DNA of 64,000 bases from a virus: positions 16,031 to 80,030 of the IMG/VR virus record IMGVR_UViG_3300036945_000368. One strand, written 5' to 3'. The translations under genes were made by a program, and so were the position numbers. The notes under the pieces were generated by a model. It did not search any database. It saw only the letters and a list, made by a program, of their open reading frames with translations, and had not been told where the DNA came from. This document shows positions 9,825-12,148 of the stretch, in pieces. Position 1 is the stretch's first letter. Each line of letters starts with the position of its first letter.

Positions 9825-10028
9825 ATGTTGCGAGGAATATCACTTGACTATGAAACTGCAGACAGAATCACTGTGCTGGTTCTTAAAGAACAACTGAGCT
9901 TTATGCAAGAATCATTAAGAGCAAAACTGGAAGATGACAAGTACCTACACCCAACTGACTCAGAACTGTATACAGAAAAGTATATTCCATCAATAAAAAT
10001 GTTATTAGAATATTTTGGAGAACAGTGA
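9825..10028 (+). CDS. hypothetical protein
   Basis: ORF, SD AAGGA, promoter-like TTGCAA...TATACT upstream. Confidence 0.7.
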   Translation: MLRGISLDYETADRITVLVLKEQLSFMQESLRAKLEDDKYLHPTDSELYTEKYIPSIKMLLEYFGEQ

Positions 10029-10043
10029 ATTCTATGTTATAAT
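10015..10043 (+). promoter_or_regulatory. sigma70-type promoter for the tRNA-Arg operon
   Basis: TTGGAG-17-TATAAT with TG extension, ending 8 nt before the tRNA. Confidence 0.6.
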
Positions 10044-10051
10044 GCAATTAA

Positions 10052-10126
10052 GCGTTTGTAGTACAATGGAAAGTACAACAGGTTTCTACCCTGTGAATGG
10101 TGGTTCGATTCCATCCAGACGCACCA
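10052..10126 (+). tRNA. tRNA-Arg(TCT)
   Basis: Acceptor GCGTTTG/CAGACGC-A-CCA; anticodon arm ACAGG-TT TCT AC-CCTGT; T-loop TTCGATT. Confidence 0.92.
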
Positions 10127-10155
10127 GATAAGCCCCGCTATGCTTGTTACTCGTA

Positions 10156-10311
10156 TCCCTAGAGCCAGCAGCACACTTCAGCGCCATATGAGCATAAATC
10201 TTGCCGCATATGGGTAAAATACATGTTACAATTGGTCGTGTAACAGTACGGACCTCCAGACCTGCGGATTGTCGTCCAATAGGAAAAGACACTACAACAA
10301 CTGTTTAGGGA
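10156..10311 (+). ncRNA. putative multi-stem structured RNA (unknown class)
   Basis: Closing stem TCCCTAGA/TTTAGGGA enclosing hairpins CCATATG/CATATGG, TGTTACA/TGTAACA and TGTC.TCC/GGA..GACA. Confidence 0.55.
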
Positions 10312-10316
10312 CAGAG

Positions 10317-10431
10317 GTTATAGTTCAGTATATTTCAGGTTGGGTAAGTTAACGTGACTTACTATTTGGATATAATAGGCTAGATAATTACTAGTGCTTA
10401 TATTAAGATACGGAATATGCTGAACTATAAC
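10317..10431 (+). ncRNA. putative structured RNA closed by a 20-bp inverted repeat
   Basis: GTTATAGTTCAGTATATTTC / GGAATATGCTGAACTATAAC (only G.U deviations) enclosing two internal hairpins; ends just before the AAGGAGG SD. Confidence 0.65.
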
Positions 10432-10442
10432 TAAGGAGGGAT

Positions 10443-11246
10443 ATGAAAAATCTTTTGATTGGTTCACGAGCGTTAGCTAATTGGAAACCTGTGCCAATTA
10501 AACTAACAACCGATTGGGACATTATTAGTGCTGCTGATATTTCAACAGACAATATTGAGTGGCATGACAGATCATTCTTGAATAACTATGCCTTCGATAG
10601 TTTTGCTTCAGATGTAACTGGTGAAATTGATGGTGTAAAATTTCATGTAATGAATCCAGTTGGTTTGACGATTATTAAGCGTAGTCATTTATGGCGTGAC
10701 TTATCTTTTGGTAAGCATATTACGCACTACCACAAGTATTTAGCCACTTGGCGACAAACTTTTCATGCAAGCACTGAGCATTTATTGCAAGAGCGTACTA
10801 AGTTAACTATGGAAGCATACCCACAAGGTAATCCAAACTTAATGCAATCTGTTGAGGGTTTCTTTGATGACGCTGTAACTAAGAAATATAGTCATGATTG
10901 GTTGCATGAATTAGTTGCTTATCAATCAAAACCGATGTATACTCGGATGCAGCACAATCCAGATATGGCTTGGTGTGAAAAAGTACTATGGGATAAATTG
11001 TCCTACGAAGAACAGTTACAATGCGTAGCTGAAGAAACATATGTAATCGCTATGGAAAGATTTCTTGTACCTAAGCAATGGGATTTCCCATATCGATTAG
11101 CTTACACTAAATCTTTGGATAAAGTATGTACAACATTATGCTCAGGTTGGTTTAGAGATTTTGCTATCGATAATTACCCTAGTATTCTCGGTCTGTTTAA
11201 TGCAGACAAAATTAACGCTGTAAAAGCAATCATTGAAAAGGAGTGA
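10443..11246 (+). CDS. nucleotidyltransferase-like (Pol-beta superfamily motif) phage protein
   Basis: N-terminal LLIGSRA...DWDII resembles the hG[GS]...DhD signature; C-terminal helical domain with HDWLHE. Confidence 0.6.
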   Translation: MKNLLIGSRALANWKPVPIKLTTDWDIISAADISTDNIEWHDRSFLNNYAFDSFASDVTGEIDGVKFHVMNPVGLTIIKRSHLWRDLSFGKHITHYHKYLATWRQTFHASTEHLLQERTKLTMEAYPQGNPNLMQSVEGFFDDAVTKKYSHDWLHELVAYQSKPMYTRMQHNPDMAWCEKVLWDKLSYEEQLQCVAEETYVIAMERFLVPKQWDFPYRLAYTKSLDKVCTTLCSGWFRDFAIDNYPSILGLFNADKINAVKAIIEKE

Positions 11247-11249
11247 GTT

Positions 11250-11603
11250 ATGAGTTTACAAGATACAATCAAAGCTTTGTTTGATGAAACAAGCGATAGA
11301 ATTTTAGAGGAAGGTTTTTTCCACGAGGAAATTAGTCCTGATTATGAAGGCTATGAAGAAGACGAAGATTCTGTAGACGGTTTATCAAAAGCATTAACTA
11401 TTGCTCAGGTATCCTTTGAATGCGTAGAACAACACGGTGGCGAAGGTGAAGGTGAAGACTTTTATACTGTCTACAAATTCACTAAGGGCGATGAAACAGT
11501 ATTCGTTAAGTTTCAGGGTTGGTATCAGTCCTACAACGGGTCAGAAATGACTGGTTGGGCTTTCGTTACACCTAAGCAAGTAATGGTGACTGTATATGGT
11601 TAA
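11250..11603 (+). CDS. acidic hypothetical protein (paralogue A)
   Basis: EQHGGEGEGEDFYTVYKF...KFQGWYQSYNGSEM. Confidence 0.75.
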   Translation: MSLQDTIKALFDETSDRILEEGFFHEEISPDYEGYEEDEDSVDGLSKALTIAQVSFECVEQHGGEGEGEDFYTVYKFTKGDETVFVKFQGWYQSYNGSEMTGWAFVTPKQVMVTVYG

Positions 11604-12036
11604 AAAGACTTTACGTACTCAACTAAAAGAAGAGACTAAAACTCTTAAAGAACAAATTGCAGCCCTAATTGCTGAGAAGGAAGCAGAGCTAATTAAGAAT
11701 GCTTCTTTAGCAGATAAGGTTATCTACTTTTTTGAGGACATGCCTCGCTCTGAGGTAGAGGAAGCCATGTTTCGCGGTTATGGGACTTTACTTATTAACA
11801 ACATTAAGGCCCGTTTAAAACCACATAACATTGATTATCATCTAGTTGAAGAACTTGGCGGTGATGAAGTGGAAAGTGGAAATGAATACTGGAAGGTATA
11901 TTCATTCTATGATGGTGTAGAGGACTGTCTTATCAAGTTTGATGGGCACTATTCTTCATATGATGGTGCTGAAATGCGAAACTTTTTCGTCGTCAAGTCA
12001 ACAACAAAACAAATCATAGTATTTGAAAAAGTTTAA
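11596..12036 (+). CDS. hypothetical protein (paralogue B, N-terminal coiled coil)
   Basis: EELGGDEVESGNEYWKVYSF...KFDGHYSSYDGAEM. Confidence 0.75.
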   Translation: MVKKTLRTQLKEETKTLKEQIAALIAEKEAELIKNASLADKVIYFFEDMPRSEVEEAMFRGYGTLLINNIKARLKPHNIDYHLVEELGGDEVESGNEYWKVYSFYDGVEDCLIKFDGHYSSYDGAEMRNFFVVKSTTKQIIVFEKV

Positions 12037-12043
12037 TCTATAA

Positions 12044-12118
12044 GTGAGTGAAGCCGAGAAGTCAGGCAGCGACCTCATAAGTCGTTGGAAGCAGGAGCGT
12101 TACCTGTCGCTCACACCA
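12044..12118 (+). tRNA. tRNA with CAT anticodon (Met or Ile2), non-canonical T-loop
   Basis: Acceptor GTGAGTG/CGCTCAC-A-CCA; GCGAC-CT CAT AA-GTCGT; T-arm GCAGG-AGCGTTA-CCTGT. Confidence 0.8.
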
Positions 12119-12119
12119 G

Positions 12120-12148
12120 TTGACAAGTTGTACCAAATCTGGTATAAT
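12120..12148 (+). promoter_or_regulatory. perfect-consensus sigma70 promoter of the SSB gene
   Basis: TTGACA-17-TATAAT with TG extension. Confidence 0.85.

Follow-up and report, generated by a model that had tools for sequence, protein, structure and literature searches.

A stem-closed RNA cassette in a phage tRNA operon and its exchange among related freshwater phages

The DNA analyzed here, hereafter the window, is a stretch of 64,000 nucleotides of phage DNA (positions 16,031 to 80,030 of IMG/VR record IMGVR_UViG_3300036945_000368). Between the gene for tRNA-Arg(UCU) and a gene for a predicted nucleotidyltransferase (NTase) of the DUF7275 family, it carries an inverted repeat that is the closing helix (P1) of an RNA cassette of about 115 nt with a three-way junction, designated type A. 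The cassette is a real, uncatalogued RNA of a known but unexplained kind, the stable RNAs in phage tRNA operons. Comparison among related phages shows that the slot behind a second conserved RNA, domain 1, always holds a near-perfect stem of 14 to 24 bp and that what tops this stem, as judged from the aligned loci, is exchangeable between phages. We put at roughly 45% the probability that the stem is the double-stranded processing stalk of an exchangeable cassette, most likely cut by host RNase III, which would free a small stable RNA.

Structure of the type A cassette

The arms of P1, GTTATAGTTCAGTATATTTC at 10317 to 10336 and GGAATATGCTGAACTATAAC at 10412 to 10431 (both on the + strand), were read from the sequence and recovered by RNAfold. 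They form 20 consecutive pairs, of which 18 are Watson-Crick pairs and two are U10329.G10419 and U10335.G10413, which are wobble pairs in + strand RNA and would be A.C mismatches if the minus strand were transcribed. The helix can be extended by G10316.U10432, giving 20 to 21 bp in the window. In the RNAfold structure of 10300 to 10450, P1 closes a three-way junction bearing two hairpins on the + strand, P2 (10343 to 10363), in which GTAAGTTA at 10344 to 10351 pairs with TGACTTAC at 10355 to 10362, and P3 (10364 to 10409), which has the arms ATATAA..CTAG/CTAG..TTATAT with the apical CTAG at 10380 to 10383 and 10391 to 10394. The junction strand J1/2, AGGUUG, lies at 10337 to 10342 (+ strand), as placed by the alignment of type A copies. 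The fold energy of 10300 to 10450 is −46.2 kcal/mol, compared with −25.1 ± 2.8 kcal/mol for 200 dinucleotide shuffles (z = −7.4), and none of the 200 shuffles was as good.

Among the inverted repeats listed in the 64-kb window with arms no more than 200 nt apart, none equals P1 in both length and complementarity. A series of similar long hairpins across the genome, like the multiple RNase III sites of T7, was considered and set aside, as none was seen within the window. The DNA of the element is single-copy in the 80-kb phage genome (the IMG/VR record, estimated to be 98% complete). An earlier description made from the letters alone, referred to here as the sequence-only reading, had placed the arms, the G.U-only deviations, the inner hairpins, and an AAGGAGG starting at 10433 exactly where they are found here, and the comparison with shuffled controls that it had proposed sets the fold far outside the shuffled range.

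Conservation of the type A cassette

A blastn search of GenBank phages returned one match, to the cultured Limnohabitans phage DC31 (74% identity over 10216 to 10460, the non-coding part), which likewise has a type A module and has the same order of tRNA, about 310 nt, and DUF7275 gene. In IMG/VR, DUF7275 homologues were located by a protein-anchored scan at 65 loci, the majority of which are linked to tRNA-Arg(UCU) and tRNA-Met(CAU). An exact 25-mer from the 5' arm and the junction was present in 31 IMG/VR stretches. All 31 carry tRNA-Arg, domain 1, and type A in this order, followed by the NTase Shine-Dalgarno sequence, a second cassette, or tRNA-Met and the NTase gene. The 25-mer had no match in 185,579 prokaryotic genomes.

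Among 15 distinct type A copies, 99.3% of the alignment cells form standard pairs, versus 35 to 44% when the 3' partner is slid by 1 to 3 columns. Ten pairs are changed on both sides, all of them in the inner hairpins (five of seven pairs in P2 and five of ten scored pairs in P3). The base of P3 (AUUU-G-G/CU-AAGAU) is invariant, and its upper part varies and covaries; no variation is seen among the 15 copies in the junction strands AGGUUG(G), UAUUUGG, and CUAAGAUAC. Within type A, no P1 pair is changed on both sides: 14 of the 20 pairs are invariant and 6 toggle between Watson-Crick and G.U, the variation being limited to G-C to G.U or U-A to U.G. The P1 arms are 96% identical on average, compared with 76% for the adjacent coding sequence and 62% for its third codon positions, and P1 is therefore constrained in sequence and not in pairing alone. 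A coding reading was rejected, as cassette lengths (103 to 120 nt) differ by non-multiples of 3 and the substitutions are compensatory. By-eye inspection for loop-loop (kissing) pairing between P2 and P3 in type A or type B found nothing consistent.

Domain 1 and the exchangeable cassettes

The type A cassette is the 3' module of a non-coding RNA of about 305 nt behind tRNA-Arg(UCU), the 5' part of which (about 190 nt) is domain 1 (10127 to 10316, + strand), a multi-helix RNA directly 3' of the tRNA. An iterated nhmmer profile of this region matched 31 of 67 DUF7275 loci, with all reported matches on the gene strand, and 60 loci of the enlarged set. RNAalifold on 28 domain 1 sequences supported at least five helices, with 15 of 24 pairs changed on both sides. 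Domain 1 ends in a hairpin at 10301 to 10314, CUG-UUUAGGGA-CAG. The loop of this terminal hairpin contains an invariant UUAGGG and another hairpin loop an invariant AUCCCUA, so that a kissing pair is possible; the 5' GUCCC of domain 1 is an alternative partner of the same GGGAC, preferred by RNAalifold, and no covariation chooses between the two. In many relatives, a sequence of about 100 nt that scores as a tRNA (Rfam, 42 to 50 bits) lies between tRNA-Arg and domain 1. It has an anticodon arm expanded by 25 to 40 nt, as in an intron-containing tRNA or a tRNA mimic, and is absent from the window; Rfam tRNA matches place it at 2457 to 2554 in locus L024, 2530 to 2628 in L005, 2618 to 2715 in L012, 2572 to 2670 in L003, 2428 to 2528 in L008, and 2300 to 2411 in L027.

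A near-perfect stem of 14 to 24 pairs (median, about 21) begins at most a few nucleotides behind each full-length domain 1, usually 1 nt past C-N-G-UUUAGGGA-C-N-G. In relatives, the slot contains type A, type B (with the ends GUUAUAGUAAGAGAUA.../...UAUCUCUUACUAUAAC or GGUAUACU.../...AGUAUACC), type C (with a T-arm-like hairpin inside), plain hairpins of 18 to 19 bp with 3- to 5-nt loops, or longer inserts. The apical part ranges from a tetraloop to 95 nt. A plain hairpin occurs naturally in place of the cassette in L012 and L023, types A and B stand in tandem, in this order, in L008 and L022, and A and B are swapped between phages with NTases that lie at equal distances from that of the window. 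While its account of the element itself stood, the sequence-only reading had missed both these several stem-closed, exchangeable cassettes and the unit that they form with the RNA of about 190 nt at 10127 to 10316.

The stems share a motif. When 21 distinct stems of all cassette types are anchored on AUA, 94% of the pairs are canonical; sliding the partner lowers this to 29 to 53%. Immediately after AUA, 11 stems have G-C and 10 have C-G, and 2 to 5 pair types occur at each of the five positions that follow. The duplex motif AUA-(G/C)-U (AUA-S-U), which sits at the base of the helix, is common to all stem types, and its chance in a 22-nt arm is about 5.5%. It also recurs, as AUAGU, in two stems unrelated in sequence. 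One, in L033, has 23 pairs enclosing about 70 nt and lies between tRNA-Arg and tRNA-Met without domain 1. The other, in L053 from a distant DUF7275 phage, is a perfect 22-bp stem that closes off a branched RNA of about 90 nt (fold z = −6.05), directly 3' of a tRNA-like sequence and upstream of DUF7275 (the tRNA-like sequence and the stem-closed RNA together cover 2720 to 2830 and 2833 to 2967). The tRNA-like sequence of L053 has the acceptor GCGGUG/CACCGC and a T-arm-like GAGGUUUGAUUCCUC, and was not called by ARAGORN.

A palindrome acting in DNA, as a protein-binding site, an origin, or a recombination site, would suit the location in a region of replication genes, and symmetric changes in its half-sites can mimic covariation. 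The stems, however, carry about 22 G.U on the + strand against 6 A.C, the inner hairpins covary on the same strand, the element sits inside a tRNA operon and always on the tRNA strand, and apical inserts of 3 to 95 nt would leave the half-sites at very different spacings. The strand asymmetry of the wobbles, the covariation within the inner hairpins, and an orientation that always agrees with that of the tRNAs make such a palindrome very improbable. P1 and both inner hairpins are evidently maintained by selection at the RNA level, as comparison of the cassettes demonstrates. Such selection on the + strand had been proposed in the sequence-only reading, and it is borne out by the G.U asymmetry, the compensatory changes between cassette types, and the covarying inner hairpins; covariation among homologues, the lack of which that reading had named as a counterargument, is present in P2 and P3 and across the cassette types.

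The stem as a putative processing stalk

On the reading favored here, host RNase III most likely cuts the stem. Cleavage would detach the stable RNAs from the mRNA or tRNA-Met that lies downstream, free the apical cassette in the form of a small stable RNA, and leave the ribosome-binding site of the next gene on a short free leader; the cassette RNA may then bind a specific partner, as the invariant junction nucleotides suggest. A stem of RNase III size lies exactly between a stable RNA and the gene or tRNA that comes next, and the scan of the operon gave a single promoter-like site and nothing resembling a terminator; both points are consistent with a stalk. A stalk with exchangeable cargo also fits the range of the apical part, from tetraloop to 95 nt, and the A/B tandems. 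The helix of P1 had been described in the sequence-only reading as one of RNase III length, and its 20 to 21 bp compare well with the idealized substrate of 22 bp, cellular substrates often having fewer than 20 bp (PMC3867540). RNase III is also known to punctuate the polycistronic early transcript of T7 (PMC3867540). No gene for RNase III or for a protein with a double-stranded-RNA-binding domain was found in the 98%-complete phage genome. RNase III is, to our knowledge, near-universal in bacteria.

Several points weigh against this reading. Cleavage by RNase III is purely an inference here. P1 has no both-sided change inside type A, its covariation arising from the cross-type comparison; in that comparison, the AUA register of the 21-stem alignment was chosen after the motif had been seen, and the compared sequences are related, so that the counts do not equal independent events. 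The only RNA data are metatranscriptome contigs of one relative: one contig from an RNA library covers 10128 to 10279 with a word depth of 30, versus 2 to 8 for contigs of neighboring genes, which is taken as no evidence, since such contigs cannot rank expression or show RNA ends and the library may hold DNA. Shares of 0.06 to 0.14 in many freshwater runs, which cover only the sequences X2, X22, X23, and X24, are not read as a statement on habitat. Where tRNA-Met comes next, RNase P alone could make the 3' end, the stem staying as a terminal helix. Finally, generic RNase III recognition is degenerate (PMC3867540) and leaves the 96% identity of the arms and the AUA-S-U motif unexplained, which suggests an additional, sequence-specific partner of the duplex. 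We argue that such a partner reads the P1 duplex, cut or uncut; among the candidates is the NTase, to which we assign a low prior.

The main rival explanation is that the stem stays uncut as the terminal clamp of one stable RNA of about 300 nt, comprising domain 1 and the cassette, in which it would shield the 3' end from exonucleases and hold the cassette. Its ends would be made by 3' maturation of tRNA-Arg upstream and by RNase P at tRNA-Met or RNase E downstream. About 1 nt separates the terminal hairpin of domain 1 from P1, which allows coaxial stacking; domain 1 is always accompanied by a stem; the strongly conserved arms would fit a role in structure or protein binding; and in L019, L024, L035, and L091, tRNA-Met begins 1 to 4 nt past the stem, so that an RNA cut there by RNase P would end exactly with the stem. 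Protection from exonucleases, however, needs far less than 20 bp, L033 has a stem cassette without domain 1, and the swapping and tandem arrangement of cassettes suggest independent units. In addition, no tRNA follows the stem in the window, and its 3' end would still need another nuclease. On balance, a clamp seems unlikely, although it is the strongest of the alternatives to a processing stalk.

What lies immediately past the stem bears on a further possibility, that the element is a cis-acting leader of the NTase mRNA, whose helix stabilizes the 5' end or tunes ribosome access. The stem ends 0 to 4 nt before a Shine-Dalgarno sequence or 1 to 4 nt before tRNA-Met. In the window, the Shine-Dalgarno sequence AAGGAGG (10433 to 10439, + strand) starts 2 nt past P1 and is unpaired in the predicted fold; it and the AUG are unpaired in both the minimum-free-energy and the centroid folds. 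At most loci the stem ends 0 to 4 nt before AAGGAG, ACUAUAAC-UAAGGAG-UAAUAUG is highly conserved, and no terminator separates the RNA from the gene, all of which would suit a leader. Searched for as a riboswitch or operator platform, however, the element showed no sequestration of the Shine-Dalgarno sequence or start codon, no U-tract, and no terminator-like site. Moreover, what follows the stem is not always the NTase gene: it can be tRNA-Met (in the four loci named above), the atypical tRNA-like element described below (L092 and L094), a second cassette (L008 and L022), or a different open reading frame (ORF) (L027, L029, and L030). In L014, the NTase gene lies 14 nt behind tRNA-Arg with no intervening RNA, NTase homologues of other phage groups lack such a leader, and a simple stabilizer needs neither invariant junction nucleotides nor covarying inner hairpins. 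The gate on the downstream gene envisaged in the sequence-only reading therefore fails as an obligatory feature, since the Shine-Dalgarno sequence is free, the downstream partner varies, and L014 has no RNA, and we rate a leader function in general as improbable.

Operon setting

Upstream of the element, the window encodes a primase/helicase, a family A DNA polymerase (PolA), and a small ORF. In the operon, the order on the + strand is promoter, tRNA-Arg(UCU), domain 1, type A cassette, and DUF7275 NTase mRNA. It is headed by a predicted sigma-70-like promoter (TGGAGA-16-TGtTATAAT, 10016 to 10043, + strand, from a consensus scan), behind which lies tRNA-Arg(UCU) with an encoded CCA (10052 to 10126, + strand; called by ARAGORN and scoring 65 bits with the Rfam tRNA model). 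Between this tRNA and the DUF7275 gene, 316 nt (10127 to 10442) are without a credible ORF. The scan found no terminator-like site on the + strand from the operon promoter to the next consensus promoter at 12120 to 12148, and the type A cassette is thus the last 115 nt of the non-coding stretch inside a tRNA-headed operon. Two internal promoter candidates were rejected. TTAACG-16-TATAAT (10349 to 10376) sits in a window-specific part of P2/P3, and ACUAUAAU, conserved near the end of domain 1 and considered as a −10 box, reads TACAAC in the window, with relatives inserting a hairpin of about 45 nt between this sequence and any −35 box.

The DUF7275 gene (10443 to 11246, + strand, with its ATG at 10443) encodes 267 amino acids and matches Pfam PF23940 (5.7e-56). 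It is followed by two small paralogous ORFs (11250 to 11603 and 11596 to 12036), the stops and starts of which overlap or adjoin; both match phrog_8206, and neither has a Pfam, PADLOC, or NCBIfam match. Behind them lies an atypical tRNA-like(CAU) element (12043 to 12118), in which the acceptor stem has 7 bp, the anticodon loop presents CAU, and the CCA is encoded. Its T-loop, AGCGUUA, is non-canonical, and the element was missed by both ARAGORN and Rfam. The same element is found behind the type A cassette in L092 and L094, in the place of the normal tRNA-Met(CAU) of relatives. Only 2 nt past it, a sigma-70 promoter of perfect consensus (TTGACA-17-TGgTATAAT, 12120 to 12148, + strand) heads the next gene.

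The neighboring DUF7275 protein

In 31 homologues of the DUF7275 protein, G7, S8, D24, and D26 (GS...DxD) are invariant or nearly so and correspond to the Pol-beta signature hG[GS]...D-x-[DE]; H82, H151-D152, and H155 are also invariant. The AlphaFold model has a predicted local distance difference test (pLDDT) score of 93, and its nearest solved folds by VIA-align are MenT1 (Z, 7.5), MenT4 (6.9), and TglT (6.1), which is the middling range for this tool. Further near folds, with Z values of 6 to 7.5, are the aminoglycoside nucleotidyltransferase ANT(2'') and a chain deposited as an AbiEi antitoxin; the Foldseek E value is 0.028. The protein has no PADLOC or NCBIfam match. It can reasonably be assigned to the Pol-beta-type nucleotidyltransferases, with a predicted fold that weakly resembles MenT/AbiEii, and the label NTase of the sequence-only reading holds in view of the invariant signature and the NTase-like model. 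A total of 734 GenBank phage records contain homologues, among them RB69ORF134c-like genes of T4-like phages; all of these homologues are annotated as hypothetical, and no mention of DUF7275 was found in the literature searched.

The position of the cassettes raises the possibility that they are dedicated RNA partners of a MenT/AbiEii-like NTase, either as a substrate that is extended at its processed 3' end or as an RNA that regulates or counteracts an enzyme with toxic potential. When IMG/VR was searched by sequence alone, all type A and type B copies recovered had a DUF7275 gene downstream, and unrelated long-stem cassettes with the AUAGU duplex precede DUF7275 in two further clades. MenT toxins modify tRNA 3' ends, and it is to such toxins that the nearest folds belong. 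Yet the adjacency of RNA and enzyme may be no more than the synteny of one phage lineage; the DUF7275 homologues of RB69-like, Otagovirus, Shandongvirus, and Acj9 phages are accompanied by neither tRNA nor non-coding neighbors; L014 has no RNA; and the fold match is middling (Z, 7.5; Foldseek E, 0.03). We give a dedicated partnership little credence. Still more doubtful is its specific form, in which the AUA-S-U duplex would be the docking site of the enzyme, which would extend the processed 3' end or be held by the RNA as an antidote. If true, it would make the locus a phage RNA-NTase module acting on tRNA 3' ends during infection, for example in counter-defense or host shutoff.

Comparison with known RNAs

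A scan with the covariance models of Rfam 15, as the sequence-only reading had proposed, assigned no family to the element or to domain 1, either in the window (at gathering thresholds and at E ≤ 10) or in nine homologous loci (E ≤ 5); only tRNAs were found. The same reading had seen a resemblance to retrons and Y RNAs, in which a long helix of the 5' and 3' ends likewise encloses a branched domain, and had remarked on the absence of reverse transcriptase and Ro60 genes. This absence extends across the 98%-complete genome: TROVE/Ro60 (PF05731) had no match in the 80-kb record, where positive controls worked, and reverse transcriptase (PF00078) had none in the phage genome. YrlA (RF02553) is similar in that its terminal helix closes a branched module, and the sister cassettes of L003 and L004 hold a T-arm-like GUCAGUUCGAUUCUGAC. 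However, the phage has no Ro60/Rsr gene, and no YrlA match falls on the element (E ≤ 10) or its counterparts in the nine homologous loci, the weak YrlA matches falling on tRNA genes. Both analogies therefore fail in their defining features, and a Y RNA or a retron msr/msd-type element is hardly credible here. The pRNA of phi29, another phage RNA and about 120 nt long, also combines a helical domain formed by its 5' and 3' ends with a three-way junction that carries two hairpins. The cassette differs in having no Rfam match, pRNA included, no convincing complementarity between the P2 and P3 loops, and a place in a tRNA operon beside replication genes.

As a helix of about 20 bp flanking RNA to be excised from a polycistronic precursor, the stem resembles the leader-trailer helices of 16S and 23S rRNAs and the five signals in the early transcript of T7. 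The T7 processing signals are irregular hairpins with internal loops. Compared with such RNase III stalks, the phage stems are near-perfect, carry the conserved AUA-S-U motif, and have very high sequence identity, and their cleavage is only inferred.

By position, the closest described RNAs are rnaD (species 2, 119 nt) and rnaC (species 1, 139 nt) of T4, which likewise lie directly 3' of tRNA-Arg(UCU) on the tRNA strand as two units totaling about 260 to 300 nt. Homology was rejected for want of sequence similarity, as nhmmer searches of the T4 region with the domain 1 and type A profiles gave no match at E ≤ 10. Unlike the cassette, rnaC contains a T-arm-like hairpin and is not closed by a 20-bp terminal helix, and no DUF7275 gene lies behind rnaC and rnaD. 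The sequences of the two T4 RNAs date from the 1970s, and decades later what they do is still unexplained (PMC3014915, PMC9697503); the genome paper of Limnohabitans phage DC31 mentions no non-coding RNA (PMC12195039). Beyond the T4 RNAs, the phages described here offer a deep comparative series drawn from dozens of freshwater phages of global distribution, a single slot with several interchangeable cassettes, a shared duplex motif, and a clear structural hypothesis, that of a processing stalk with exchangeable cargo, and the cultured pair of phage DC31 and its host DCL3 makes experiments feasible (PMC12195039). If the cassettes are only processing signals, they would show how phages punctuate mixed tRNA-mRNA transcripts; if they are released small RNAs with protein partners, they would represent a new class of phage regulatory or counter-defense RNA.

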